Origin: an uncultured delta proteobacterium
GTDB taxonomy: Bacteria; Myxococcota_A; Polyangia; Polyangiales; Polyangiaceae
Length of the DNA: 64,000 bases
NCBI GenBank assembly: GCA_963841435.1
Contig: CAWJCS010000002.1
Location: forward strand, 704,001 to 768,000
Direction: 5' to 3'
Position 1 is the stretch's first letter. The number at the start of each line of letters is the position of its first letter. Of this stretch, positions 3,257 to 49,439 are shown one piece after another. The notes below the pieces were generated by a model, which worked only from the letters and a program-made list of their open reading frames with translations, was not told the DNA's origin and searched no databases. The position numbers and the translations under genes were made by a program.

Positions 3257-4980
3257 GGTGCTCCCTTTGCGAGGGCCGCCTCGACGCGCGCAGCAAGCAC
3301 TCCCACGGCATCGCCGAGCGGCACGAGCTCGGCCTTCTTGGGGTCGGGCTCGCTGCGCGGCTTGAGCTCGAGCGCGCCGTTCTTCAGCCCCTTTTCGCCA
3401 ATCGTCACGCGCAGTGGGATGCCGATCAGGTCGGCGTCCTTGAACTTCACGCCGGGGCGCTCGTCACGGTCGTCGACCAGCACTTCGATTCCCGCGCGCT
3501 CGAGGCCGGCCTCGAGCGCGAGCGTCGCGTCGCTGACGCCCTGGCTCTCACCGAGCGGGACGACGTGGACTTGGTAGGGGGCGAGCGTCATCGGCCAGCG
3601 GATGCCGTTGTCGTCGTGGTGCTGCTCGACCACGGTGGCCACGAGCCGGGACACGCCGATGCCGTAGCAGCCCATCACGATGGTCTGCTCCTTGCCCGCG
3701 AGGTCGAGGTAGCTCGCGCCCATCGCCTGGGTGTAGCGCGTGCCGAGCAGAAAGATGTGGCCGGCCTCGATGCCGCGATAGAGCTGGAGCGCCGCGCCGC
3801 AGCTCGGGCATGCGTCGCCTGCGACGACGCTGCGGATCTCGGCCGTGGACCCCTCGAAGTCTCGTCCGTAAACGACGTGCTTGAGGTGAAGGTCGGTCTC
3901 GTTGGCCCCGGTGACGGCGTCGGCGACGGCTGCTGCATCACGGTCGATCAGCACTTTGCCGCGGAAGCCCAGCGGCCCGGCGAACCCCACGGCCGCGCCG
4001 GTCGCCTTCCTGACGTCGTCGGCCGACGCGAGGAACACCTCGCCGACGCCGAGCGCGCGCGCGAGCTTGATCTCGTTCACCTCGTGGTCGCCGCGCACGA
4101 CGGCGAGCACGAGGTCGCCTCCCGCGACGTAGACGAGGCTCTTCAAGAAGCGCGCTGGGCTCGTGCCGAGCAGCTTCGACACGTCCTCGATGGTGCCGGC
4201 GCCGGGCGTCGGCACGCGCTCGACGGCCGGCACGTCGCCCCGAGCGGCGTCGGCGGGCGGCGCCTTGGCCGTCGCCACCTCGAGGTTCGCGGCGTAGTCG
4301 CACGACCCGCACGCGGCGAGCTGATCCTCGCCGCTCTGCACGAGCACCTGGAACTCGGCGCTCGCGGAGCCGCCCATGCTGCCCGAATCGGCGCCCACCA
4401 TGCGGTAAGCGAGCCGCATGCGGTCGAAGATACGCGAGTACGCAACGCGCATGCTCTCGTAGCCGAGTCGCGCGTCCGCCTCGTCGACGTGGAACGAGTA
4501 GGCGTCCTTCATGATGAACTCGCGCCCGCGCAAAAGGCCGCTTCGCGGGCGTGGCTCGTCCCGGAACTTCGTCTGGATCTGGTAGAGGTTCTTCGGAAGG
4601 TCGCGGTAGCTCTTGATCTCGCGTCGCGCCAGATCGGTGATGATCTCCTCGTGGGTCGGTCCGAGGTGATAGTCACCGCGCTTCCGGTCTTTGAGACGAA
4701 AGAGCGTGTCGCCGAACACGTCCCAGCGGCCGCTCTCCTGGAAGTACTCGGCCGGCAAGAGCGCGGGCAGGAGCACTTCCTCCGCGCCGGCTCGGTTCAT
4801 CTCCTCACGAACGACGCCTTCGATTTTTCTGAGCACGCGCACGCCGAGCGGCAGAAAACTGTAGATGCCGGCACCCACGCGCCGGATGCAGCCGGCGCGC
4901 GAGAGCAGCACGTGGCTCTTGCTCGTCGCATCGGCGGGAGCTTCTTTGAGAGTGGGGAGGAGCGAGCGGCGGTAGCGCAT
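3253..4980 (-). CDS. proS: Proline--tRNA ligase (bacterial type with INS editing domain)
   Basis: LLPTLKEAPADA, LGPTHEE, YQIQTKFRDEPRPRSGLLRGREFIMKDAYSF, GCYGIGVSR and DDRDERPGVKFKDADLIGIP. Start reset to ATG 4980. Confidence 0.97.
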   Translation of the reverse strand: MRYRRSLLPTLKEAPADATSKSHVLLSRAGCIRRVGAGIYSFLPLGVRVLRKIEGVVREEMNRAGAEEVLLPALLPAEYFQESGRWDVFGDTLFRLKDRKRGDYHLGPTHEEIITDLARREIKSYRDLPKNLYQIQTKFRDEPRPRSGLLRGREFIMKDAYSFHVDEADARLGYESMRVAYSRIFDRMRLAYRMVGADSGSMGGSASAEFQVLVQSGEDQLAACGSCDYAANLEVATAKAPPADAARGDVPAVERVPTPGAGTIEDVSKLLGTSPARFLKSLVYVAGGDLVLAVVRGDHEVNEIKLARALGVGEVFLASADDVRKATGAAVGFAGPLGFRGKVLIDRDAAAVADAVTGANETDLHLKHVVYGRDFEGSTAEIRSVVAGDACPSCGAALQLYRGIEAGHIFLLGTRYTQAMGASYLDLAGKEQTIVMGCYGIGVSRLVATVVEQHHDDNGIRWPMTLAPYQVHVVPLGESQGVSDATLALEAGLERAGIEVLVDDRDERPGVKFKDADLIGIPLRVTIGEKGLKNGALELKPRSEPDPKKAELVPLGDAVGVLAARVEAALAKGAP

Positions 4981-5138
4981 GGGGGCTTTCGGGCCGGCAA
5001 ACCTAGCAAAACGCCCGGACTCCGGACGGGCCGGCTCGCATTCCCCTGTTATGCCGCCTCGGAGTCCTCCTGGGCTGGTCGCGAGCTGCCTCACTAATAT
5101 TCCATAATAATTACGAAAACTTGTTCGTCAAATCGCCT

Positions 5139-5163
5139 ATTTCCTACTGGCCACACCGGAAAT
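5139..5163. promoter_or_regulatory. Candidate operator (Rrf2/CymR-like inverted repeat) upstream of the sulfite reductase
   Basis: ATTTCC-N13-GGAAAT (25 bp) inside an AT-rich divergent promoter region. The family assignment is inference from size and context. Confidence 0.35.
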
Positions 5164-5222
5164 GTCGGGTACATCTTGCCCACCGGCTCGGCTAGCGTGC
5201 CGGGCCACTAAGAGCAGACGCC

Positions 5223-7478
<2,256 letters not shown>

Positions 7479-10836: not shown

Positions 10837-11895
10837 TCAGAGTCCGACTTCGTGCCTCACGCCACCTGGCAGGTTGGTAAAGCGCGAGGTGGGGCAATGG
10901 GGCGGCGAATCGAAGCGGTTGTTGTGGTCCGTGGGCAGCACGACGCCGCCGTTCGCGGTCGGCGTCGCGAGGAAGCCGGAGGCCGGCTCGGCGTCGGCGC
11001 ACGTCGTGAGCTCGCGGTAGCCGACGCGGGTGGTCCATTCCGTGCTGAGTGACGAGAGTTGCCCCCAATCCTTCGGCACCAGCATGCGACCGTACATGAG
11101 CTCGATTCCCGTCGTGGTGTCGAGGATCCAGGCACCAATCCAGATGTCGCCGGTCACGTCAACCGACTCGCGTCCAGCGCGAAGTCGGTAGGTGTGACAC
11201 GGAGCGAGCGTATAGCGGGCGTGGATCGTGAGCCAGTCGAGGCCGCGCGCCGTGTTCGGAGCGATGCGGGCGTCGGGGTAAGCGATCTCGCCGAGCTCGG
11301 CGCGGATGGGTGGCCCCGCGATCCAGAAGACGATCATGTTCGTGATCTCGTAGGGCCCGTCGGGCGGATCGGCGCTGTAGCCGCCGTTCACCTGGATCCC
11401 CGTGAAGCCACCGCCGCTCGCGACGAAGCCGAACTGATGGGCCCACATGTACCCGTCGGTGAGGTTGTCGCGCTCGACCTCCACCTGCCACTCGAGCATG
11501 TCCATGGGGCCGGGCCAGAACCAGTCGGTGTACGTGTTGGTCATGGCGATGTCGGTGCCCGCCGGATTGGTGGGGCCCGGGGGGTCGGTCGGCAGGCAGC
11601 TCAGCGGCTCGGCGCCGGCCTCGCCTCCGGTGCCGCCGGAAGGTTGCCCCCCGGTGCCGCTCGAGCCGCTCGAGCCGCTCGAGCCGCTCGTCCCCGCGGT
11701 ACCGCTGCTGCCTCCCGAGCCGCTCGAGCCTCCTGGGCCGCTCGCCGCGCCGCTCGAGCCCGCGGTCCCTGCGTTTTCGGGGCGTCCGAACGAGCCGAGC
11801 GGGACTTCATCGGTGCAGCTCCACCCCCCGAGCGCCCCACCAAGGAGCAGCGCGAGCGCGGCTTTCCTGCTCGTGTCGGCGCGGGTCGGCGACAC
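10837..11895 (-). CDS. Gly/Ser-linker lipoprotein with DUF3472-like beta-sandwich domain
   Basis: Signal ending GGWSC, (SGS)n linker, then YMWAHQFGF...GGGFTGIQ. The domain call is from memory. Confidence 0.6.
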   Translation of the reverse strand: MSPTRADTSRKAALALLLGGALGGWSCTDEVPLGSFGRPENAGTAGSSGAASGPGGSSGSGGSSGTAGTSGSSGSSGSSGTGGQPSGGTGGEAGAEPLSCLPTDPPGPTNPAGTDIAMTNTYTDWFWPGPMDMLEWQVEVERDNLTDGYMWAHQFGFVASGGGFTGIQVNGGYSADPPDGPYEITNMIVFWIAGPPIRAELGEIAYPDARIAPNTARGLDWLTIHARYTLAPCHTYRLRAGRESVDVTGDIWIGAWILDTTTGIELMYGRMLVPKDWGQLSSLSTEWTTRVGYRELTTCADAEPASGFLATPTANGGVVLPTDHNNRFDSPPHCPTSRFTNLPGGVRHEVGL

Positions 11896-11899
11896 GACC

Positions 11900-12709
11900 T
11901 CAGGGCCCCGTTGTGGGCTCGGCTTCTCCCATCAACGAGCGCACGCGCTTCGCGTACGGGCCGTTCGGATGGCGGGCCACGAACTTTTGCCCCAGTCGCA
12001 GCGCTGCGGGGCAATCGCCGCTCTTCAGGAGCGCGTCAACCCTGAGCACGGTCGCTTCCATCGTGAGGCGACCGCGCGGGAAGCGTCGCGAGTACTCGTC
12101 GAGCTTCGCGAGCGCCTGGGTCTCGTTTCCTCGGGCGAGCGCGCCGCGGGCCGCGTCGAGCGTCGCGAGCTCGAGCGATAGGGTGTCGGTCGCGCGCTCG
12201 GCGGGTGCGCGCGCGGGCTCGGCGGGGTTTTGGAGCCGATCGGTTTGCTCCGCCGCGGGCTCCGGGGCCGGTGGGGTCTCAACCGCGCGATCCTGCGGCG
12301 CTGGCCGCGGCGCCGGCGAAGCCTGGGCGGGACCGGGCGGCGACGGGGCCGGCGGTGGTGAGGGCGTATGGAGCGTCGTGCCCGCGTAGATGGCGAGCGC
12401 GCCACCGATGGCCGCGACCGTGACGCGCAGGGCCACGCCCGTGCCGAGCCAGCCGAGCTTCGTGGCGGCCGCCGCTGCTGTCGCCTTGGCGCCCGAGGCC
12501 GCGGCGGTGCCGGAGGCGACTGTCGTGCTCGCTGCGTGAGCGCCGGCGCCCGAGGCCACGGTGCCTGCGGTGAGGAGCCCGGCGACTCCGAGCCCTGCCG
12601 CGATTTCGCGTCGGCTGCTCGCGCTCGGCGCGTCGTTTCGCCCGGCGCGCAGCAAGCGCGACTCGAGCTCGTCGGCGCCGCCGTCGAGCAAGCGCTGCGG
12701 ATCATTCAT
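11900..12709 (-). CDS. Putative membrane anti-sigma factor with C-terminal TPR-like domain
   Basis: MNDPQRLL...LLRAGRNDAP, one TM segment, Pro-rich linker, ELATLDAARGAL...YSRRFPRGRL.MEA. ATGA overlap with the sigma gene. Confidence 0.75.
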   Translation of the reverse strand: MNDPQRLLDGGADELESRLLRAGRNDAPSASSRREIAAGLGVAGLLTAGTVASGAGAHAASTTVASGTAAASGAKATAAAAATKLGWLGTGVALRVTVAAIGGALAIYAGTTLHTPSPPPAPSPPGPAQASPAPRPAPQDRAVETPPAPEPAAEQTDRLQNPAEPARAPAERATDTLSLELATLDAARGALARGNETQALAKLDEYSRRFPRGRLTMEATVLRVDALLKSGDCPAALRLGQKFVARHPNGPYAKRVRSLMGEAEPTTGP

Positions 12710-38601: not shown

Positions 38602-39991
38602 TCACATGTGCTCGATCACGGCACGCCCGAACTCCGAGCACTTCACTTCCTTGGCGCCCTCCATGAGCCGAGCAAAGTCGTACGTCACCGTGCGTGCGCC
38701 GATGGCACCGTCCATCCCCTTGATGACGAGATCGGCGGCCTCGTTCCAGCCGAGGTGACGCAGCATCATCTCACCGCTCAGCGTGACGGAGCCGGGATTC
38801 ACGCGGTCGAGGTTCGCGTACTTCGGCGCGGTGCCGTGCGTCGCTTCGAAGACGGCGTGGCCCGTGTCGTAGTTGATGTTGCCGCCCGGCGCGATACCGA
38901 TGCCACCCACCTGCGCCGCGAGCGCGTCCGACAGGTAGTCGCCGTTGAGGTTGAGCGTCGCGATCACTTCGAAATCCTTGGCGCGCGTCAGCACTTGCTG
39001 GAGCGTGATGTCGGCGATCGAGTCGCGGATCTTGAGCAGCTTCTTCCACTTGCCGCCACCGTGCGTCGGCGCGAGCGCGAGCGCGGCCGTCACCTCGGCG
39101 TGGAGGTCGGCGCGCACGTCGGGCGGAGCCATCTCGTAGCCGGGCTCGACGAGGCGCGCGTTCGCCTCCACGCTGAGGCTCGGATCCTTCTCCTGGTTGT
39201 CGAGGATCCAGCTCTCGCGCTCGGTGACGACCTGGGCGCGGAATTCCCGAGTCGCGAGGGCGTAGCCCCAGTCGCGGAACGCGCCCTCGGTGAACTTCAT
39301 GATGTTGCCCTTGTGCACCAGCGTCACGCTCTTGCGACCCGGCCTTGAGCGCGAAGTTGATCGCCGCGCGCACCAGCCGCTCCGTCCCCTCACGCGATAC
39401 CGGCTTGATGCCGATGCCCGACGTCTCCGGGAAGCGGATCTTCGTCACGCCCATCTCGTTCTGCAAGAAGGCGATCACCTTCTTGGCTTCGGGCGTCTCG
39501 GCGGTCCACTCGATGCCGGCGTAGATGTCCTCGGTGTTCTCACGGAAAATCACCATGTCAACGTCGCCGGGCCGCTTCACGGGGCTCGGCACGTTCGTGA
39601 ACCAGCGCACGGGTCTGAGGCACACGTAAAGGTCGAGCATCTGCCGGAGCGCGACGTTGAGGGAACGGATGCCCTTACCGACGGGTGTCGTCAGCGGACC
39701 CTTGATGCCCACGAGGTACTTTCGGTAGGCGTCCACGGTTTCGTCGGGAAGCCAGCTGTCGAAGAGCTTCTTCGATTTTTCCCCAGCGTACACCTCGTAC
39801 CACTCGAGCTTGCGCTTGCCGCCGTACGCCTTCGCCACCGCAGCATCCAGGATCGCGCTCGAGGCGCGCCAGATGTCGGGCCCCGTCCCGTCGCCCTCGA
39901 TGAACGGCAGGATCGGGTGGTCGGGCACCTCGAGCTTCTCGCCCTGCATGCGGATGGGTTCGCCGGACTGGGGTGGTTTCAAGGACGACAT
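38602..39991 (-). CDS. icd: NADP-dependent isocitrate dehydrogenase, split by a +1 frameshift near 39339
   Basis: [36 protein letters not shown], then [21 protein letters not shown] and [10 protein letters not shown]. Removing one base from CCC at 39338-39340 restores ...[11 protein letters not shown] (463 codons). Confidence 0.93.
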
Positions 39992-40242
39992 CGTCCCCCG
40001 CTCTTAGCATCGCTTGCGGCCGGCGGGGAGTGCGCGCGACGACCGAAGCGCGCTGCCTCGCGTGAGAGCGGCTGCTGCGCACGGGCCCACGCGCATCGCT
40101 GATGTGGGCCGGCGCAAGCCTCGACGCGGCCGTCCGGTTTCTGGCCGATTGCGCCCGGATTGGTCCCGAAATTCCGCCGGTCAACGGATGGTCGCGAGCG
40201 CGGCGGGGTGATGGCGCAGGACGCTGGTGTATCGTCCGTCCC

Positions 40243-40893
40243 GTGCGCCTTTTCGTGACGCTCCTTGCCGTGCTGCTGTCGGCGCTCACGGCGTGCGGCA
40301 CGCCGCCCGAGCCGCGCAGCGCTCCGCCCGAGCGCCCGCGCGCGGCCGCGGTAACGCCAGAGCGTGACCCGTGCGCTTCCGGCGACCCGTCAGCGGACGA
40401 CGCGACCAAGCTTGCCTCCTTTCGCGGTCTGCTGCTCGGCGTGCGCTGCCGCGCGGAGCTGTTCGCCGTCATGAAGAAGACCGCGACGGCGCTCGGTGTC
40501 GCGTGCACACACTGCCACGTCGCGGGCAACTACGCGGCCTCGACGCCCCAAAAGAGCATTGCGAACTGGATGGCAGGGTTCGAGCGCGGGCTCCGGCAGC
40601 GCGGCGGTGGCGCCGTTGCGTGCGCCGATTGCCACGCCTACGACGGCAAGCCACACACCAAAATGCTCGGCGAGCCGCGAAGTCGCACGGCATCCGTCGA
40701 ATGGATGACAACCGTGCTCGCCGAGCGTTTCGAGTCGGCGTCGGGCGAGCCGCTCTACTGCCGCTCGTGCCACGTCGGGGGGCTCGGCGAGCCGAGCTTC
40801 GCGCGCACCGTCATCGGGAGCGAGCACGTGCCGCTCCCCCCGGGCCCAGCTCCCGCCTCGATCGATCGCGCCCCCGGAGCGCCGGATGGCTGA
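40243..40893 (+). CDS. Triheme c-type cytochrome lipoprotein (PufC/reaction-centre cytochrome-like spacing)
   Basis: Lipobox LTAC; MKKTATALGVACTHCH, CADCH and CRSCH. Confidence 0.8.
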   Translation: MRLFVTLLAVLLSALTACGTPPEPRSAPPERPRAAAVTPERDPCASGDPSADDATKLASFRGLLLGVRCRAELFAVMKKTATALGVACTHCHVAGNYAASTPQKSIANWMAGFERGLRQRGGGAVACADCHAYDGKPHTKMLGEPRSRTASVEWMTTVLAERFESASGEPLYCRSCHVGGLGEPSFARTVIGSEHVPLPPGPAPASIDRAPGAPDG

Positions 40894-40927
40894 CGAAGTC
40901 GACTCCGTGCGCGCCGCGTGAACGCCG

Positions 40928-42379
40928 CTACTGGACCGGCTTTTCGGCCTGTACTTTTTCGAACAACGCGCGCTCTTCCGGCGTCGCTTCCTCGAGCTCG
41001 GGCGGCTCGGAGAAGCGGTCGAGCTTGCGCTCGAGCGATTTGCGATTCACGCCGAGCAGGCGCGCCGCCGCGCTCTTGTTGCCGCTGCACATCTCGATGG
41101 CGTGGTGCAGGATGGCGCGTTCGATGAGATCGAGCTTCGAGCCGATGCGCGACGGCAGCGCGAGGATGGCGCGCGCCATGCGGTCCACCTCGCGCGCGCC
41201 TTCGGTGAGCTGGCCGCCCACGAGCTCCTCGAGCACGGGCACGTCGACGACTTCCTTTTCGGCGAGCAGCGCGAGGCGCTCGACGCCGTTTTTGAGCTCG
41301 CGCACGTTGCCCGGCCAGCGCCGCCGGCGGATCCATTCGACGGCTTCGTCCGTGAAACGGAGCCTGGGCTGAAACTGCGCCGCGAACGAGTGCAAAAGCT
41401 CGATGACGTCGTCCCCGCGGTCCGCGAGCGAAGGCACGGTCACGGCGACCACGTTGAGGCGGTAGAAGAGATCCTCGCGGAACCGCCCCTCCGCGATGCG
41501 CTTCTCCAGGTCGACGTGGGTCGCGGCGATGACGCGCGCCTTGAGCGGCAGCTCGTCCTCGCCTCCGAGCGGGCGAAAGCGCCGGTCCTCGAGCACGCGC
41601 AAGAGCTTTGCCTGCAGCTCGACGGGCATCTCGGCGATCTCGTCGAGCAGCAGCGTGCCGCTGCCGGCGAGCTCGAGCTGCCCGCGCATGCGCTGCACGG
41701 CTCCGGTGAAGGCGCCGCGCTGGTGGCCGAAGATCAACGATTCGATGAGGTTGCCCGGCAACGCAGAGCAGTTCACGGCCAGAAATGGCTGGCTGCTGCG
41801 GTGGCTCGAGTGGTGGATGGCACGGGCCACCATTTCCTTGCCGCTGCCCGTCTCGCCGAGGATGAGCACGGGTGCTTCCGCGTCCGCGACGCGCGCGACG
41901 AGCTTCATGACGCGCTCCATCGGCGGCGAAGTGCCGATGAGCGCCGCCGGGCCGAAGCTGGTGTCGATGTGTTGCTTGAGCCGCACCACCTCGCTCCGCA
42001 GCTGCAGGCGCTCGCGGATGCCTTCGACGATGGGCAGGAGCATCTCGGGGCCGAGCTCGTCCTTGAGCACGTAGTCCTGAGCGCCCTGGCGCATGGCCTC
42101 GCGGATCTCGGCCAGCTCCGTCGAGGCGGTCACCATGACGGCGGGCGTGGAGCGTCCGCTCTCGCGTAGCCAGCGCAAGAAGGAGAGCCCGCCGCGATCG
42201 GTCGGATTGGGCGACAGCCGGATGTCGACGAGGGCGGCATCCGGATTCTGGCTCTCAACGCGCTCCTTCGCTTCCTCGAGGCTGCCGGCCTCCAGAATCT
42301 CGACGTCCTTGAGCTCGCTAAGCAGGTGGCGGAGCACGCGCCGCGCGCTGCGCTGATCGTCGACGAGGAGGATCTTCAT
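40928..42379 (-). CDS. Sigma54-dependent response regulator (REC-AAA+-Fis HTH, NtrC family)
   Basis: ILLVDD, ALVDIRL, GETGSGKE, GAFTGA, FREDLFYRLNV, WPGNVREL and GNKSAAARLLG. ATGA overlap with the kinase. Confidence 0.95.
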   Translation of the reverse strand: MKILLVDDQRSARRVLRHLLSELKDVEILEAGSLEEAKERVESQNPDAALVDIRLSPNPTDRGGLSFLRWLRESGRSTPAVMVTASTELAEIREAMRQGAQDYVLKDELGPEMLLPIVEGIRERLQLRSEVVRLKQHIDTSFGPAALIGTSPPMERVMKLVARVADAEAPVLILGETGSGKEMVARAIHHSSHRSSQPFLAVNCSALPGNLIESLIFGHQRGAFTGAVQRMRGQLELAGSGTLLLDEIAEMPVELQAKLLRVLEDRRFRPLGGEDELPLKARVIAATHVDLEKRIAEGRFREDLFYRLNVVAVTVPSLADRGDDVIELLHSFAAQFQPRLRFTDEAVEWIRRRRWPGNVRELKNGVERLALLAEKEVVDVPVLEELVGGQLTEGAREVDRMARAILALPSRIGSKLDLIERAILHHAIEMCSGNKSAAARLLGVNRKSLERKLDRFSEPPELEEATPEERALFEKVQAEKPVQ

Positions 42380-44768
42380 GCAACCCTTGCTTCCGAGTCG
42401 GCGGCCGCCTCGTTCGGCGCCTGGCGCGCGCCGTCGCGCACGATGTCCTCACCGCGCACGGTCACGGCGAAGACGGTGCGGCTATCGCGGCGCTGCGCCG
42501 CGATGCTCCAGCCGTGCGCGCGCACGAGCCGGTGCGTGATGGCGAGGCCGAGGCCCGTACCGCGTGGCTTGGTGGTGTACCAGGGCGCGAACAGTCGCGA
42601 CGGGTCGCCCACGTAGCCCGGGCCCTCGTCCCACACCGAAAGCTCCCCGCCGCCGCCCGCCGCGCGCCACGCGATGCCGACGCGCCCATTCGGGCCGCAC
42701 GCCTCGAGCGCGTTGGACATCAAGTTCACGAGCACCTGAGTCATCTTGTCCGGATCGCAGCGCAGGGTCGCGTCCGCTCCGAGTCCGAGCTCGATGTGCC
42801 GGTTGCCGAGTGCATCCCCGAGCAGCGTTTCCACGCGCCCGCAGAGCTCCGACACCGGCGTTGGCGCCCGCTCCAGACGGTGAGCGGCCATGCGCTTCAA
42901 CCCCGAGACCAGCCGCTCCAGACGATCCACTTCTTCTCTGCCCACGTCGATGTCGTCGGCCGTCAACGCCACGCTGCGGGAGCCACGCTCGAAGACGCTC
43001 CTGAAGTAGTTGATGGGGTAGCGCACCTCGTGCGCGATCTCGGCCGCGACCGTCTCGACGAGGGCTTCGCGCTCGCCGCGCCATGCCTCTGCCTGCCGGC
43101 GCCGCCGCTCCTCGAGCTCCTGGTAGGCGTGGGCATGGGCGAGCGCGAGCCCACCGTTGTTGGCGATCGTACGCAAGAGATCGATGTCGTCGCTCGTGAA
43201 GAGCGCGCCGCCCCGCTTCGCTCCCGCGTCGAGCCAACCGAACGGTTTGCCGCCGAAAGTGACCTCGAGCCTGAGCTCGGCGTCGCTCGGGCGCGGCGGC
43301 TCGTCGGTCTCGACGCCGGCGCCGGTCGGGCCCTCGCCCGACGCTGGGCCCTCTGCGTCGGCGACGGTGGACCTCCGCGGTGCCGGCGCGAGCGTGAGGT
43401 GAATGTAGTCGCAGGGCAACCAGCGACGCACGGTGCGCTCGATGGCCTGGGTGACCTCTCTCGGCGAGGTGAGCGTCGTCAGCTCCTCGCTCAGACGGTC
43501 GATCGTGGGTTTGTACTGTGAGCGCGACCGAAACAGCGTGAAGTCGCTGACGCGCAGCGCCGAGACGACGAGCACAGCGGCCGCCACGCCGCCGCCCGCG
43601 GCACCGGCCAGCGCATCACGGAAGCTCGCGCCCATCCACGTCGCGAGCGCACCGCCCACGGCGATGGCGAGTGCGCAGGCGAGCGCGCCGACGAACAGGC
43701 TCGTGCCGACGCGAGACAGCAACGCACGACTGCCCCAAAGGTCATAACGCACGAACGCGTACAGGCTCGCGACCGGCGCGAGTAAAAGCGCGGGGAAGAC
43801 GATGGCGTCGGGAAAGGACTTAAGGAGGCCGAGCGAAGTGAGCACGCCCCAAACAGCGACCCCGGTGTAAGCGGGCACCATCGACAGGAGGAGGGCACGT
43901 AGCGTGTCGCGCTGTTCGCCGCGCGACTGGCCGTAGCGAAAGAGAAACCCCGCCACGAACGCTACGAACGAGAGCCCCAGCAAGAGCGTGACGAGGCTCT
44001 GAATCGGCCCGGTATCGCGCCCGAGCAGGTAGGATCCGGTCAGCGTGAGAGCGAAGCAGAGGGCGATCGCCTGGATCAGCGTACGGGTCCAGGGGTGCTT
44101 CCTCACGACGGCGACCGTCGTCGGCAGCTCCAGAACGAGAAGCACGACCACGAAGGGGAGGATGGCGAAGGCCGAAAAGAAAATCGGCGTCAGCGTTCTG
44201 GTCGTGTGAACGTTGAAGAGTGTGAGCAGGAAAAGTCCGCTCGTGACGCCGAACTTGGCGAACGCCCGTGACAACGCGCCACGCGGTCGCGCCCAGAGTG
44301 CGAGCAGACCCGCGCTAGCGTAGACCACGCCGCTAAAAAGAAAGCTGCCCGCGTAGAGCCACCAGCCGATGGGGGAAAGCGGCTGGAGGGCCAGGCGGAC
44401 GACTTCTTGGTCGAGCTACGCTCGACGACGGCATCGAGGTAGCCGACCTTCGCCGCCTCCACGACGGCGGCATCCCACGCGGTGGCCCGGGCCAGGCTTC
44501 CCGTGACCCCTTCCGCCCCCACGGGCAAGACCCGATCAGGAAATTTCAGGCCCAGTCGTCGTCCCGCCCAGTCGTCGAGGCCTAGGCTGGACACCGAACC
44601 GCCCGGATCGACCAGGACGCCCGGGATCGGACGACCATACCAGGTCAGCGCATCGCGGACGGCAACACAGGTCAGCGCGACCAGGAGGCTCGTGAGCACG
44701 ACGATGGCAAGGGTGACCCGCGGTCCGGCGGCATGGTCGTGATCGGCTTGGGGCACGTTGCCCAGCAT
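42376..44768 (-). CDS. Multi-TM sensor histidine kinase (TM-PDZ-like-9TM-GAF-HisKA-HATPase; ComP-like), one -1 frameshift near 44403
   Basis: Two ORFs (44190-44768 and 42376-44328) join if one G is added (AAG GTC GTC CGC), giving 798 codons. H-box AHEVRYP, N-box VNLMSNALEA, DEGPG and GTGLGLAI. Confidence 0.85.
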
Positions 44769-44815
44769 ACGCGCGCTCCTGCACGCCTTCTAGCCGAGCA
44801 CGAATGGGCGTCAAT

Positions 44816-46693
44816 TCAGCCCGATCCGGCTCTCAAAGAGCCCGGGTCGGCCGGTCGCTCTGCCTCGCTGGCCGGGACGACTCCGGAGCGGTGCGCTTGG
44901 GTGTTTGGCGCTCGCCCCCACTCGGCCGCGTCGACGAGCTGCCGGAGGATGGCCTCTTCGAGGGCACCCTCAGCCTCCGCCGACGAGCGGGCGCGCAGCG
45001 CCACCTCGAGGCCCAAGAGAGCCTCCTTTCGCGTGCCGCTCGGGTCCGCGTCGGAAAGGACGCGCAGCAATAGCCCGAGCTGCCGGAGCAGGTGGCCCCG
45101 AGGCTGAACGCCGAGCCGTTCCGGATGCCGCGCCCAGACTCGCGCCGCGCGCAGCATGCTCGCGAGCGCGTGGGCCGCGGTCGAATCGCGCATGATGACG
45201 CAAACCGCAAATTGCCACACCGCCCGCGACGTACCCGGGGCAAGCGGGGCGCCACGCGACGCTTCGACGAAAGCCCGGGCAGCGTGGTGTTCTCCCATGC
45301 GCACGAGTGAGAGGGCCACGGGGTCGGTCGCGGCAAGGCAAGCGGTGGTCGCGCTCAAGCGGCCGTACCCGTGCTTGGCATTGTGGCCGTCGTCATCGCT
45401 GCCCAGGGGCTCGAAGTCGCGGCGATCGGCGAGCCCGTGCTCAAAAGCTCGCCCCGACGGATCGAGAGCAACGCTCGTTTCACGGAGCAAGCAATCCACG
45501 TCGGGCAAAGTGAGCAGCGGATTCGTCGCAAGCAGGAGCAGGAAGACACCACTCGCGACGCCGGACGCGCCGCTGGACTCCGCGTGCCATGCCCGCTCCT
45601 CTTCAGCGAACGGGTAGGCCATGTCGTCGCCCGGAGCGAGGAAGCGCACCGACGGACCGCGATTCGCGAATGGCCTCAGGCGCCCGCGTCGGTCGAGCCA
45701 GAGGAACCAGCCACCGTCGCGGGCGCTCGGCCCGATGCAGAATACGCGAGGATCGGCCGCGGGCTCACCCAGGCCGAGGCTGAGGCTCGAATGGACCGAA
45801 TCGTGTGGGCTCGACATCTCGCGGCCCGTGGGCATCACGACGACGGTGCCGCGTCCGCCGCGCCCAACGCGCACCGCGAGCTCGAGCGCGTCGTCGAGCA
45901 TGGGGCTGGTTTGCCCCTCGACGTACGTCGCGCACACGATGACGTCGGCGCCGTCCTCGACGGCGCGCGCGATGGCGAGCGGTAGCGTCCACACGTCGTT
46001 GCCCGGCTTGGGAATGCAGTAGAAGCGGGGGGACGCGTCGGGAGCGATGCCCGAGAAGCGCTTCCCGTTCGCAGCCGTCGCTCCTACCGCCCAGCCGAGC
46101 ATCAGTGCGGCGTGCGAGTGCGACCGCGGTATCGCAGCGACGGCGACGGGCACCTCCGCCTCGAGCGGGATGCGCTCGAGTTCGAGCCCGTCGTTGTCGA
46201 TCACCGCGAGTCGCGTGCCAGCACCGGTCCCGCAAAAGCGGCGGTTAACGTCCGCACCCTTCGCCCGAAGGAACCAGCGCCAGGGCGTGTCGGCTTCGAC
46301 GAGCTCCGTTGGCCCGCGCGCGGGCCAGTCGCGCGCTTGTCGTCGGGCGCGCGTCACGCAGAAATCGAGGCGCGGGGGAAGGGTCTGCGTGCCGCGCCTC
46401 GCCGAGGTGACGTAGCGCACGCGAGCGGAGCCTAGACGGCGAGATACCTCCCGGCGATCGAGCTTCTTCGAAGACTCGACCCGCGTCCAAAAGATCGGGT
46501 GATTGCTGAACAGGGGCGTCACTGCAACGTCGGGGGCGAGGTCCGAAAGCGCGCGAGTGACCTCCACGGGATCGATGTCCTCGCAGGTCGCAACGACGAG
46601 GTCCTGCTCCGGTTGGCCCTCGTCGCCACCCCCATCGGGATCGGCGCGTAGTCGAAGTCCCAACTCGGGTCCGGGTCCGCCCGCGCCGCTCAC
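44816..46693 (-). CDS. Divergent S8 (subtilisin-like) peptidase, no signal peptide
   Basis: GTGAGTRLAVIDND (Asp), HSHAALM (His), GIAPDA, FANRGP...LAPG, ESSGASGVASG...LLLATNP (Ser) and HGYGRL. GTGA overlap with the upstream gene. Confidence 0.8.
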   Translation of the reverse strand: MSGAGGPGPELGLRLRADPDGGGDEGQPEQDLVVATCEDIDPVEVTRALSDLAPDVAVTPLFSNHPIFWTRVESSKKLDRREVSRRLGSARVRYVTSARRGTQTLPPRLDFCVTRARRQARDWPARGPTELVEADTPWRWFLRAKGADVNRRFCGTGAGTRLAVIDNDGLELERIPLEAEVPVAVAAIPRSHSHAALMLGWAVGATAANGKRFSGIAPDASPRFYCIPKPGNDVWTLPLAIARAVEDGADVIVCATYVEGQTSPMLDDALELAVRVGRGGRGTVVVMPTGREMSSPHDSVHSSLSLGLGEPAADPRVFCIGPSARDGGWFLWLDRRGRLRPFANRGPSVRFLAPGDDMAYPFAEEERAWHAESSGASGVASGVFLLLLATNPLLTLPDVDCLLRETSVALDPSGRAFEHGLADRRDFEPLGSDDDGHNAKHGYGRLSATTACLAATDPVALSLVRMGEHHAARAFVEASRGAPLAPGTSRAVWQFAVCVIMRDSTAAHALASMLRAARVWARHPERLGVQPRGHLLRQLGLLLRVLSDADPSGTRKEALLGLEVALRARSSAEAEGALEEAILRQLVDAAEWGRAPNTQAHRSGVVPASEAERPADPGSLRAGSG

Positions 46694-47655
46694 GTCAGCA
46701 CCTCGGCCGCCCACGAGCCGAGCTTGATGGCGCGCACGACGTACCCGGCGTGGCGATCTTCCAGCGGCAAAAGGGCGTCGAGGCGGACTTGGCGTTGCTC
46801 TGCCCAGCGAGCGAGCGTGTCGGCGCCGAGCGCTCGTGCGTGGCGCCAGGCGGTTCGGTACTGATGCCGTGCGTCCCGCAACATCAGGTACAAGACACGC
46901 ATCCCTAGCACCCGGCGGCGAACGATGTCGGGCTCCGTGGGGCGCTCGTTTTTGGGGTCCTGTTTCACTGCCTCGAGCCGCCGCCTCGCGAGCGATACCG
47001 CCCACGCGCCGCCGCCGCGCCGCCAATCGTCCTCCCAGTCCCCGGCATCGTCCTCGAACTGGAGGCCGAGCCAGACACCCGCGAGCAGGCGGTGGACCTG
47101 CTCGACCTGAATGGGAGAGGCACCCGACGCGCGAGCCAGCGCGAGCGTGGCCGGAAAGCCAACTGCCTGTTTCGCGAGTGAGATGCGCCGATAGTCGCCG
47201 AACGTGACGGCAGCGATGCGACTCAGTAGGGCGTGCTCTTCGAGGATTGCCTCGCTGGTTTCTCGGTCTGCCGCTTCCGCGAGCGCCACGGTGTCCGGGC
47301 ACAGCTCCGCCAACAATCGATCGCGACCGCTCCGGAGCTCGGCAAGGAGCAAGAGCAGCTCCGGGGTGGGACTGATTTGCCGGTCGGCGACGCGGTCCGT
47401 GCCGAATGCTTCGATGACCGACAAGGCGTGTGCAAGCACGGCAAGACGGACGTGCTCGGGGCGCGCCATGGGGAACGCCTCGGCGACCAAGCTCGGCGCC
47501 TCGAGCGTTACCGCGTGGTTGAAGACATCGCTCCAGGCCTTACCGCTGACCGGGGCGAGCCCCAACAAATGCGGAAGGTCGCGGGCAATCCCGCGCAGTG
47601 CAGGAGGTAGCGCATTCGCGTAGCCCGCGTAGAGCGCGTCTATCATGGATGTCAT
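46690..47655 (-). CDS. Class I isoprenoid-synthase-fold protein (ComQ-like peptide prenyltransferase candidate)
   Basis: All-alpha composition, degenerate first Asp motif FGTDRVADRQ, Y-x6-K helix (DYRRISLAKQA) and second Asp-rich motif GLQFEDDAGDWEDD. Confidence 0.7.
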   Translation of the reverse strand: MTSMIDALYAGYANALPPALRGIARDLPHLLGLAPVSGKAWSDVFNHAVTLEAPSLVAEAFPMARPEHVRLAVLAHALSVIEAFGTDRVADRQISPTPELLLLLAELRSGRDRLLAELCPDTVALAEAADRETSEAILEEHALLSRIAAVTFGDYRRISLAKQAVGFPATLALARASGASPIQVEQVHRLLAGVWLGLQFEDDAGDWEDDWRRGGGAWAVSLARRRLEAVKQDPKNERPTEPDIVRRRVLGMRVLYLMLRDARHQYRTAWRHARALGADTLARWAEQRQVRLDALLPLEDRHAGYVVRAIKLGSWAAEVLT

Positions 47656-47715
47656 CGAGGGAGACGATTCGGTCCGAGGAAAGTTGTCCCCCCCTCGGTG
47701 AGCGCGCTCAATCAG

Positions 47716-48036
47716 TCAGTAGCCGTTCGACTCCTTCCAGGGAGAGATCGCGACGTTGATCCGCTCGTTGACGACGATGCTCCGCCAGAGAACCACCTGG
47801 GCGGCGCTGAGCTCCTCGAAGTCACCGCAGACCCAGTCCGTGATGCGGGCGTTCAATTGCGCGCGCACGCGACGTGCGTCGTCGTTCTCTTCGGTGGCGT
47901 CTTCGGTCGTAGGATAAAGAGCGAGCAGCTGCTTGAATTCGTCGAAGCGGTTCTGATCTTCCAAAAGTGAAATGTAGAGGCGGCGAAGCTGAGCGTGGGG
48001 GTCGGTGGCGTGCATTTGGGTAGCGACGGCGGTCAT
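47716..48036 (-). CDS. Small protein, putative RiPP/pheromone precursor (106 aa)
   Basis: Strong AAGGAG ribosome-binding site, first gene of the operon, helical acidic leader-like region, C-terminus ...NVAISPWKESNGY. Confidence 0.7.
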   Translation of the reverse strand: MTAVATQMHATDPHAQLRRLYISLLEDQNRFDEFKQLLALYPTTEDATEENDDARRVRAQLNARITDWVCGDFEELSAAQVVLWRSIVVNERINVAISPWKESNGY

Positions 48037-48097
48037 TGGGTGGTTTTTCTCCTTGATGCATGCGGGTGAGAGCCCGCACTGCTGGCCCCCCCAGACG

Positions 48098-48114
48098 TGC
48101 AAGGATCGTGCACA
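48098..48114 (-). promoter_or_regulatory. Sigma54-like promoter of the precursor operon
   Basis: Minus strand TGTGCACG-ATCC-TTGCA. It matches GCACG-N4-TTGCA but has TG instead of the conserved GG. Confidence 0.45.
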
Positions 48115-48177
48115 CGTCGTGACCTCCAGGAAGCACCCGCATTTGCGCGGATCGCGTCGCGCGCGCCGGTTGACGCT

Positions 48178-48214
48178 GGTCGGATCCGGCCAAGCGCGGG
48201 GTCGGATCCGGCCA
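48178..48214. repeat. Tandem 15-bp direct repeat of a near-palindrome (candidate enhancer/UAS)
   Basis: GGTCGGATCCGGCCA at 48178-48192 and 48200-48214; 22-bp period, palindromic core CGGATCCG. Confidence 0.75.
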
Positions 48215-48267
48215 CTCGTCGCCGCATCGCAACGTCGCTACGCTCGCGTGCGAGTCAGCGCGTGCCG

Positions 48268-48576
48268 ATGCCCGTCCTGTTGTTCGTCTACGGATCCCTC
48301 ATGCGTGGGGGGAAACATCACGCCGAGCTCGCCGATGCGCGTTTCGTCGGGCCAGCTGCGACCGAGCGCCGTTGCGGCGTCGTGCGGGTCGCGGAGTATC
48401 CGGCGCTCGTGCCCGGAAACGACGTAGTCCCCGGAGAGCTCTACGAAATCGACGAGACGAGCTTGCTCGCGCTCGATGCTTTCGAGGGCGAAATGTACCG
48501 TCGCGACACCGTAGCGCTCGACGACGGCCGCGTGGTGCTGGCCTATGTTCTCGCCGCCGCCGCGGGGCCGTATTAG
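48268..48576 (+). CDS. Gamma-glutamylcyclotransferase (AIG2-like) family protein
   Basis: [20 protein letters not shown] and LDAFEG. Confidence 0.88.
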
Positions 48577-48586
48577 GCCCTCACCC

Positions 48587-49439
48587 ATGAGGCTGATTCG
48601 CTTCGGCGCTCCCGGTAACGAGCGTCCCGGCGTGCTCGTTGGGGGCGATCGGCGCGACGTTTCCGAGGTATTTCGCGACTGGGATCGCGACTTCTTCGAG
48701 AGCGACGGGCTTGCGCAACTTGCGCAGCTTCTCGCACGCAGCGTCGCGACGTTGCCCGTCGTCGATGCGTCCGAGCGCTGGGCGTCGTGCGTGGCGCGAC
48801 CCGGCAAGGTGCTCTGCATCGGGCTCAACTATCGCGACCACGCGCGCGAGTCGGGTGCGGAGCTTCCCAAGGAGCCGGTGCTGTTCCTCAAGGCCGCCAA
48901 CACCGTCGTCGGTCCGTACGACGACGTTCAGGATTCCGCGCAGCAGCGCGAAGACGGATTGGGAGGTCGAGCTCGGCGTCGTCGTCGGCAAGCGTGCTCG
49001 CTACGTGCCTTCGGCGAGCGCGGCCCTCGAGCACGTCGCAGGCTACACGATCTCGCACGATGTCTCCGAGCGCGAGTTCCAGCTCGAGCGCGGTGGGCAG
49101 TGGACGAAGGGGAAGTCGTGCGACACCTTCAATCCGCTCGGGCCGTACCTGGCCACGCCTGACGAGGTGGGCGATCCTCAGGCTCTCGCGCTCGGTCTCG
49201 ACGTGAACGGCGTGCGCCGCCAGTCCGGAAATACGCGGGATATGGCGTTCGGGGTGGCCGAAATCGTTCGCTACGTGTCCGAGTTCATGACGCTCGAGGG
49301 CGGCGACGTCATCAGCACGGGGACGCCGGCGGGCGTCGGGCTCGGCATGAAGCCGCCCGTCTACCTGAAGAACGGCGACGTGTGCGAGCTGTTCGTGGAA
49401 AAGCTCGGCACCCAGCGCCAAACGTTTCGGAGCGAGTGA
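48587..49439 (+). CDS. Fumarylacetoacetate hydrolase family protein, +1 frameshift near 48931
   Basis: [17 protein letters not shown], then [25 protein letters not shown] and TGTPAGVG. Removing one G (CAG G ATT) restores 284 codons. Confidence 0.9.

Follow-up and report, generated by a model that had tools for sequence, protein, structure and literature searches.

A five-gene operon of an uncultured myxobacterium that may represent a Bacillus-style lipid-peptide signalling circuit in a Gram-negative lineage

Three described bacterial systems, as far as the accessible parts of the reports go, pair a tryptophan prenyltransferase of the isoprenyl pyrophosphate synthase (IPPS) superfamily with an adjacent small protein carrying a Trp in its tail. 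These are ComQXPA, PalPXQ and StheQ/StheX, and the first two include a histidine kinase. Here we analyze a five-gene operon in a 64,000-nucleotide stretch of DNA from an uncultured delta proteobacterium of the Polyangiaceae (assembly GCA_963841435.1, contig CAWJCS010000002.1, positions 704,001 to 768,000 of the forward strand; this whole stretch is called the window below). The operon encodes, in this order, a small Trp-containing protein, an enzyme with a prenyltransferase-type fold, an S8-like (subtilase) protein, a polytopic histidine kinase and an NtrC-type activator. With these described systems as its closest precedents, it could be a Gram-negative counterpart of the lipid-peptide signalling circuits of Bacillus.

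The PalP-PalX-PalQ system of Paenibacillus alvei consists of a kinase, a long conserved precursor and a Trp prenyltransferase of the isoprenoid-synthase superfamily (PMC10853753). The Trp of PalX was placed in the active site by an AlphaFold model, and its prenylation was then demonstrated; ComQ, according to the same report, keeps the first Asp-rich motif and is without the second (PMC10853753). In the accessible part of a 2014 census, no ComQXPA-like loci were reported outside Firmicutes (PMC4008528). A ComQ-type enzyme, StheQ, was described together with StheX from Sphaerobacter thermophilus, a member of Chloroflexota (bioRxiv 10.64898/2026.08.29.745113). In the accessible text of that preprint, D85 and D89 of the StheQ motif D-E-x-x-D hold Mg2+ and diphosphate, a Gln (Q212) lies one turn before a pseudo second motif N-D-x-x-D (N215), and StheX is 69 amino acids (aa) long with its acceptor Trp near the C-terminus. 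A 2026 review counts as trans-isoprenyl diphosphate synthase-like prenyltransferases ComQ, the P domain of ChrPC and PalQ, all of which target Trp and have a conserved Gln. Within those portions of the literature, the IPPS-type Trp prenylation systems found were ComQ, PalQ and ChrPC, plus StheQ from Chloroflexota. A preliminary description of the present DNA, made from its letters alone, had held that no described system has this combination of genes; that was too strong, since PalPXQ (PMC10853753) and StheQ/StheX resemble it. No description of the present enzyme family or of a myxobacterial counterpart was found in the literature searched.

The operon is best explained as an autoregulated signalling module of uncultured Polyangiaceae-type myxobacteria. 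Its chemistry could be Trp prenylation, a reading that we put forward tentatively, as possible though somewhat short of probable, because of the fold and catalytic-type residues of the enzyme, the unstructured invariant tail of the small protein, the conserved linkage of the genes, and the three described systems. In such a circuit the enzyme would bind a prenyl diphosphate and transfer the prenyl group to the tail residue Trp100 of the small protein, in the way that ComQ, PalQ and StheQ act on their neighbouring small proteins. The subtilase would then process the C-terminal end, by removal of a terminal dipeptide (a variable residue and Tyr, xY) and/or by release of a C-terminal lipopeptide. 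The target of the product would be the sensor region of the kinase, in its membrane part or its loop; the kinase would drive the activator and so switch on the operon from its tandem operator, a positive feedback. Prenylation, cleavage, export and sensing of the small protein are steps that we infer.

The enzyme was modelled from an alignment of 26 homologues as an all-helical protein (predicted local distance difference test score, pLDDT, 90.7; predicted template modelling score 0.88). Foldseek comparison of this model with the PDB gave 21 matches at E<=0.001, and those listed were trans-polyprenyl diphosphate synthases or the indole prenyltransferase Ord1, with template modelling (TM) scores of 0.52-0.70. 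Among the best of them was 3aqb_B, the large subunit of M. luteus hexaprenyl diphosphate synthase (TM 0.70). An Atlas search likewise suggested for the enzyme a class-1 isoprenoid cluster (score 0.93), in which 21% of the members carry PF00348. The isoprenoid-synthase fold that had been proposed from the sequence was thereby borne out, as the all-alpha trans-isoprenyl diphosphate synthase fold, by both model and Foldseek.

Conservation of the catalytic-type residues was counted in 112 close enzyme sequences, comprising the window's own and 111 of the 120 listed homologues, those of at least 300 aa. The helix on which synthases bear their first Asp-rich motif here reads H76...E82...D87-R88-x-x-D91, with Asp or Glu at position 87 in 110/112 and at position 91 in 100/112 sequences, and R88 in 111/112. 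The helix corresponding to that of the second synthase motif reads Q199-x-x-D202-D203-x-x-D206-W207-E208-D209-D210; here D203, W207 and E208 are found in all 112 sequences and Q199 in 106, and the full D202-D203-x-x-D206 with the W-E-D-D after it is 94-100% conserved. Canonical synthases also carry a Gln before the second motif, so that this residue is not discriminating. A profile search of 1.84 billion representatives returned 382 enzyme representatives (clustered at 50% identity) at E<=0.001. In 86 wider homologues (those of the 149 newly listed matches that are 290-400 aa long), H76, R88, Y155, K162, D203, W207 and W218 were each conserved in more than 90%. The family is a sizeable uncharacterised branch of the isoprenoid-synthase superfamily.

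The small protein is predicted to form four helices (pLDDT 69) followed, from about residue 91, by a C-terminal tail of low confidence (below 60) when modelled alone, as would be expected for a segment that docks into a partner. In the window it ends SPWKESNGY, and the Trp is Trp100, six residues from the end. At E<=0.001, 347 homologues were found among 354 candidates; 120 of them were listed, one being the window's own protein, and the other 119 were compared with it. Over these 119 listed homologue clusters identity to the window protein was 63-86%, and nearly all members were 102-110 aa long, which places the small protein among the best conserved genes of the locus. All 120 listed proteins end in Tyr and 119 of them have the Trp, the tail consensus being (V/I)A(L/I/V)SPW(K/R)ESNxY with variation at the penultimate residue. 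This position, 105, is among the seven most variable columns of the protein (3.03 bits; 11 residue types, all hydrophobic or small), and it was shared in only 13 of the 34 pairs that are at least 95% identical elsewhere. It can be seen that a small Trp-containing protein does stand first in the operon, with the Trp close to the C-terminal end of a tail that comes out as flexible in the model of the protein on its own, and that the hypervariable precursor C-terminus (pherotypes) proposed as a check was not found, the tail being near-invariant except at position 105. No Pfam or NCBIfam family, and neither NHLP nor Nif11, was matched by the small protein; its fold had 0 matches in the PDB at E<=0.001, and the Atlas search gave a top score of at most 0.80 and no lead.

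Related loci were collected from one genome per species, and gene presence was scored by tblastn. Eight loci (L001-L008) were obtained, all from metagenome-assembled genomes of Polyangiaceae or unclassified Myxococcota. All eight encode the enzyme, and the small gene lies directly upstream of it in 7/7 loci with upstream DNA. The kinase was found in 7/7 and the regulator, 67-81% identical, in 6/6 of the loci that extend far enough. The most distant loci, L007 and L008, whose enzymes are 51% and 43% identical to that of the window, keep all five genes. None of the tested flanking genes of the window is shared by L008, and only three are shared by L007, where their positions differ; in the closer loci (L002, L003, L004 and L006), the flanking housekeeping genes are syntenic. 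The proposed conservation of the five-gene order was therefore upheld beyond local synteny, with the S8 gene absent in one clade. In L007 (6920-9265, minus strand) a soluble histidine kinase of PAS-HisKA-HATPase-REC architecture, and in L008 (7662-9206, minus strand) one of GAF-HisKA-HATPase architecture, lies directly upstream of the small gene and divergent from it; in the window this position is held by a GGACT-family gene.

The S8 gene is present in five of the eight loci and cleanly missing from L003, L004 and L006, which form one supported clade (99/96) nested among S8-bearing loci. Since this clade keeps the other four genes, the earlier term "dedicated" is not supported for the protease. 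The same three loci, and no others, encode a small protein whose end is ...W(K/R)E(S/T)N, the xY being absent. In addition, the L003 kinase (3668-6010) is without a loop core of about 75 residues, the L004 loop has diverged, and the L006 kinase (11150-12643) keeps only one N-terminal segment and the last membrane segments before the cytoplasmic part; L006 and L003 retain the small protein and the enzyme despite this decay of the sensor. The joint loss links the S8 protein, the xY end and the kinase sensor region. The co-loss of S8 and xY was also considered as a correlation and set aside, as it reduces to a single event on the tree.

Upstream of the small gene lie two CGGATCCG palindromes, spaced 22 bp centre to centre and each within a TGGCCGGATCCGACC repeat. 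The window holds six copies of CGGATCCG, against 4.1 expected, and only one tandem pair (Table 1). Six of the eight loci carry the exact pair, in each case immediately before the small gene and at no second place within as much as 21 kb of sequence; of the other two, L001 does not reach into the upstream DNA, and one of the copies in L005 deviates. An alignment of eight upstream sequences shows both cores to be invariant. The pair represents likely, predicted binding sites of the NtrC-type activator. Between it and the gene, the element GTGCAC-N5-TTGCA departs at two positions from the σ54 consensus TGGCAC-N5-TTGCW. As a bare motif it is not above chance (21 two-mismatch matches versus 18.9 expected), but in the form GCAC-N7-TTGC its GC and TTGC are invariant and in register in 8/8 upstream sequences. 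Of the two upstream features proposed earlier, the tandem palindrome was thus present at a position conserved in related loci, and the σ54-like promoter stood by its conserved position and not by its motif. No σ70-type promoter was found in 40500-48500. The conserved −24/−12-like element together with the operator implies autoregulation, and we infer a σ54-type promoter with a weak −24 region, driven by the operon's own activator from the tandem operator about 95-120 bp upstream.

The kinase has Pfam HisKA and HATPase_c domains, with a weak GAF-like stretch as linker. Its hydropathy profile shows about 10 peaks, the first at the N-terminus and separated by a loop of some 95 residues from the other nine, which reach to about residue 405, in agreement with the 10-transmembrane histidine kinase first described. 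From the hydropathy and the positively charged N-termini of homologues, the loop is predicted to lie outside the cytoplasm, in the periplasm. It had been called PDZ-like, but none of five loop segments from homologues matched a Pfam PDZ family at E<=10, and the likeness remains an impression. The loop and the membrane region are the least conserved parts of the kinase (28-60%) and not hypervariable, contrary to the expectation of a hypervariable sensor loop. The regulator gave Pfam scores of 68.7 bits for Response_reg, 223 bits for Sigma54_activat and 41.7 bits for HTH_8, and GAFTGA is present in its sequence; its earlier assignment as an NtrC-type σ54 regulator is correct, the protein having a receiver (REC) domain, an AAA+ domain with GAFTGA and a Fis-type helix-turn-helix. 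It is not NtrC itself, as it scored 348.6 bits with the NCBIfam ntrC model versus a cut-off of 558.6 and fell below every named equivalog cut-off.

The S8-like protein consists of an N-terminal extension, a catalytic domain and a C-terminal helical region of about 170 aa. With the Pfam S8 model (PF00082) the window copy scored 19.1 bits, below the gathering cut-off of 21.8, whereas the four homologues tested all passed (24.1-25.1 bits); on this score the designation as an S8 protease is weak for the window copy. At E<=0.001, 459 S8-like homologues were found among 8000 scored candidates. H194 and S374 are invariant and D166 is conserved in at least 90% of 31 S8-like sequences, and the three residues align, as Asp-His-Ser in subtilase order, to the triad motifs of the subtilase Ak.1 protease (1dbi). 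In the same alignment the position of the oxyanion-hole Asn is occupied by R291, invariant in the 31 sequences.

Several observations weigh against the Trp-prenylation circuit proposed above. First, the enzyme matched no Pfam or NCBIfam family at E<=0.1 and no ComQ, polyprenyl-synthase or terpene-synthase model, and its profile, compared with the sequences of the PDB, found at best a geranylgeranyl diphosphate synthase at E=0.58. Its first motif is D-R-x-x-D and not DDxxD or DExxD, with Arg in place of the second acidic residue, and its second motif is a full DDxxD, a motif that is degenerate in enzymes of the ComQ type. At best it may work like the known Trp prenyltransferases; as judged from sequence, membership of the ComQ family cannot be demonstrated for it. 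Secondly, the small protein is conserved over its whole length, with no variation of the pherotype kind, a pattern that resembles folded partner proteins more than typical precursors, and the candidate acceptor Trp is six residues from the end, whereas PalQ, in the accessible account, needs a terminal Trp. Thirdly, no signal peptide or N-terminal hydrophobic segment was seen in the small protein, the enzyme or the S8-like protein, and all three are therefore taken as cytoplasmic; the operon encodes no exporter, as had been noted from the start, and none is conserved in or near any of the loci, while the kinase loop is predicted to be periplasmic. Furthermore, the −24 element is imperfect in seven of the eight upstream sequences, a full GG being found only in L008, the kinase is frameshifted in the window copy, and the joint loss of S8 and xY is an anecdote because it is one evolutionary event on the tree. 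Taken together, fold, gene order, promoter element with operator, and tail Trp survive from the preliminary interpretation; the pherotypes, the dedicated protease, the sequence kinship with ComQ and the absence of any described counterpart do not.

An alternative is that the locus serves regulated isoprenoid metabolism. The enzyme would then make or convert a free isoprenoid (a prenyl diphosphate, a terpene or a lipid head group), the small protein would be an accessory or regulatory subunit, and the two-component system would control expression. A heterodimeric hexaprenyl diphosphate synthase works with a small helical subunit encoded alongside, and it is the large subunit of such an enzyme, 3aqb_B, that ranks with the best structural matches. 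The present enzyme has both acidic motifs, the second of them as the full DDxxD that chain-elongating synthases typically carry; the small protein is conserved from end to end, and it is kept along with the enzyme in the clade that has no S8 gene. On the other hand, by eye no counterpart of the canonical N-terminal Lys/Arg region that binds isopentenyl diphosphate was seen in the alignment, and small subunits are included among the PDB chains to which the small protein has no match. Left unexplained are the invariant unstructured Trp/Tyr tail, a co-transcribed cytoplasmic subtilase and the recurrent polytopic kinase. We regard such a metabolic role as rather unlikely, though the likeliest of the alternatives.

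A second alternative is intracellular lipid anchoring, comparable to the CaaX processing of eukaryotes, in which Trp100 would be prenylated, the subtilase would trim the residues beyond it, and the lipidated small protein would dock on the cytoplasmic face of the kinase without export. It fits the predicted cytoplasmic location of the small protein, the enzyme and the S8-like protein and the want of a conserved exporter, as well as the conservation of the whole small protein like that of a folded adaptor. The protease-less clade encodes a tail already ending at Asn, without xY, and the small protein and the enzyme were retained where the kinase lost most of its membrane segments (L006) or the loop (L003). 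Nevertheless, this anchoring depends on every chemical step proposed for the signalling circuit, it leaves the loop domain of the kinase unexplained, and the accessible literature on IPPS-type Trp prenyltransferases holds no bacterial precedent for it. It is quite unlikely.

Less likely still is a set of non-catalytic adaptors, in which the IPPS-fold and subtilase-like proteins would be pseudo-enzymes or binding proteins and would, with the small protein, influence the kinase or the activator through protein-protein contacts. The Arg in the non-canonical first motif, the invariant Arg at the oxyanion position of the subtilase and the want of family-level matches (Pfam, NCBIfam) agree with this; the acidic residues, Q199 and the Asp/His/Ser triad are, however, 89-100% conserved (in the 112 and 31 sequences), which is hard to explain without catalysis. 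Finally, that the genes are neighbours only by shared ancestry of close genomes, with no joint function, is highly improbable: the flanking housekeeping genes are indeed also syntenic in four loci, but the five genes stay together in L007 and L008 with displaced or unshared flanks, their overlapping stop and start codons point to co-translation, and the promoter element and the operator are both conserved and occur at this one place.

The Trp-prenylation circuit may also be stated in a more specific form, as the first of its kind in a Gram-negative phylum. Here the enzyme would lipidate Trp100, a dedicated cytoplasmic subtilase would trim ...N-x-Y in the CaaX-like order of lipidation first and cleavage at the C-terminus second, the loop of the 10-transmembrane kinase would recognise the resulting C-terminus, and σ54-dependent positive feedback would act through the tandem operator. 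In this full form the proposal is unlikely.

The layout of the operon is given in Table 1. The five genes are co-oriented and tightly packed as first described, and the overlaps and gaps were verified in the sequence. For the small protein, a 128-aa open reading frame (ORF) with a TTG start was rejected as an over-extension, the ATG preceded by AAGGAG being preferred. In other respects the anatomy described earlier was confirmed only in part: the layout stands, the kinase is not one ORF in the window, the PDZ-like loop is unsupported and the wobble bias is modest.

Table 1. Positions of the operon genes and upstream elements in the window
Feature	Position	Strand	Remarks
Small-protein gene	48036..47716	minus	106 aa; ATG with AAGGAG 5' of the start
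Enzyme gene	47655..46690	minus	321 aa; 60-bp gap after the small gene
S8-like ORF	46693..44816	minus	625 aa as annotated; start overlaps the enzyme stop (GTGA)
Histidine kinase gene	44768..42376	minus	47-bp gap after the S8-like ORF
NtrC-type regulator gene	42379..40928	minus	483 aa; start overlaps the kinase stop (ATGA)
Tandem operator	48178..48213	.	two CGGATCCG palindromes, 48181-48188 and 48203-48210
−24/−12-like element, GTGCAC-N5-TTGCA	48113..48098	minus	about 60 nt upstream of the ATG

The reading frame of the kinase breaks near 44420-44415, where the window sequence has one base missing relative to an open frame, and the gene is in a single frame in all five related loci that span the site; it is for this reason not one ORF in the window, as it had been taken to be. 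At the 5' end of the S8-like gene, the motif WDFDYAPIPMG, which all S8-like homologues conserve in their N-terminal part, falls at about 46665-46630 and is read in the upstream gene's frame instead of the annotated S8 frame; on the sequence, this implies two compensating shifts within about 70 nt (about 46693-46622), the second in a G5 run. An isocitrate/isopropylmalate dehydrogenase gene that adjoins the operon (38602-39991, minus strand) is also split over two overlapping frames, ORF 38771-39991 covering profile positions 3-178 and ORF 38602-39393 covering positions 174-348; the L007 copy of this gene is split as well. Since the frame breaks four times within 8 kb, and once in a housekeeping gene, indel errors of the assembly are the likely cause of the breaks in the kinase, the S8 5' end and the dehydrogenase. 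A split kinase as real biology was judged unlikely, given that the dehydrogenase gene and the S8 5' end are likewise shifted, one shift lying in a G5 run.

The GC content at third codon positions is 0.79 for the small gene, 0.79 for the enzyme, 0.81 for S8, 0.78 for the 5' part and 0.85 for the 3' part of the kinase, and 0.90 for the regulator; other ORFs of the window typically have 0.82-0.92. The impression of a block more A/T-rich at wobble positions therefore holds weakly for the first genes and not for the 3' part of the kinase or the regulator. Horizontal transfer was considered on this ground and rejected, as the bias is small and the locus lies in conserved chromosomal synteny; standing among housekeeping genes that are syntenic in relatives, it gives no sign of recent import. 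In the gap 3' of the small gene (47656-47715, minus strand) a 10-bp stem (CCGAGGGGGG...CUUUCCUCGG) can be drawn. As an attenuator it was dropped, since its stability is ordinary (z = −0.62) and 45 of 200 shuffled sequences fold at least as well. An Rfam scan of 40500-48600 gave a single sub-threshold chance match. PADLOC returned for the locus only generic AAA+ activator matches to the regulator, and the operon is accordingly not a known defence system.

On the upstream side, the divergent neighbours (48097-49439, plus strand) encode a GGACT/AIG2-like gamma-glutamyl cyclotransferase and a protein of the FAA hydrolase family. Synteny of the two genes extends to L002-L004, and that of the FAA hydrolase gene to L006 as well; nothing evident ties them to the operon. 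On the downstream side, a convergent ORF of 263 aa (40102-40893, plus strand) had no Pfam match and carries the CxxCH-type motifs CTHCH, CADCH and CRSCH and a lipoprotein-like N-terminus. It was found near the operon in L001, L003, L004, L006 and L007, and from its motifs it may be a multihaem cytochrome c.

Should the Trp-prenylation circuit prove true, lipopeptide or lipoprotein signalling would be extended to myxobacteria, a group known for social behaviour, and would gain two new components, a dedicated subtilase and a σ54 output with a defined operator. A function would also be given to three families now called "hypothetical protein" or generic peptidase, which hold 382 enzyme representatives, 347 small-protein clusters and 459 subtilase clusters. 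If instead the role lies in isoprenoid metabolism, the locus would define a new regulated isoprenoid enzyme family with an unusual D-R-x-x-D first motif.

Among known systems, the heteromeric trans-prenyl diphosphate synthases resemble the locus in that their large subunit (3aqb) matches the enzyme at TM 0.70. The present locus differs in that its small protein showed no structural match among the PDB chains and possesses a conserved unstructured tail, and in being connected with a kinase, an activator and a protease. With StheQ the enzyme has the IPPS fold in common, and D87/D91 and Q199 are spaced as D85/D89 and Q212 of StheQ, an equivalence that for the two Asp residues was judged from sequence and helix position and not by superposition. 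The motifs themselves differ, being D-E-x-x-D and N-D-x-x-D in StheQ versus D-R-x-x-D and D-D-x-x-D-W-E-D-D here. In its accessible part, the StheQ description mentions no kinase, protease or σ54 regulator, whereas the present locus has all three.

Likeness in gene content is offered by the two kinase-containing systems. As in ComQXPA, so far as the accessible parts of its descriptions extend (PMC4008528, PMC10853753, PMC13290415), there is an IPPS-fold enzyme, a small protein with an internal near-C-terminal Trp, a polytopic kinase and a regulator, encoded on one strand by overlapping genes with no exporter among them. The gene order is X-Q-(S8)-P-A here versus Q-X-P-A there; the precursor here has 106 aa and is highly conserved, whereas that of ComQXPA is polymorphic; and the second Asp-rich motif, absent from ComQ, is complete. 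Neither family models nor the PDB profile detected a relationship between the present enzyme and ComQ at the sequence level. ComA, the regulator of ComQXPA, is of the LuxR/NarL type. The present regulator is instead of the NtrC type (REC, Sigma54_activat and HTH_8). PalPXQ, in its accessible description, is similar in that a kinase gene stands beside a long conserved precursor-like protein with a Trp in its tail and beside a superfamily enzyme remote from the known subfamilies. PalX is of the NHLP type with the Trp as its very last residue, unlike the present small protein, which matches neither NHLP nor Nif11 and in which the Trp is followed by K-E-S-N-x-Y. To the PalPXQ plan the present locus adds a subtilase and an NtrC-type σ54 activator, and it does so in a myxobacterial host.

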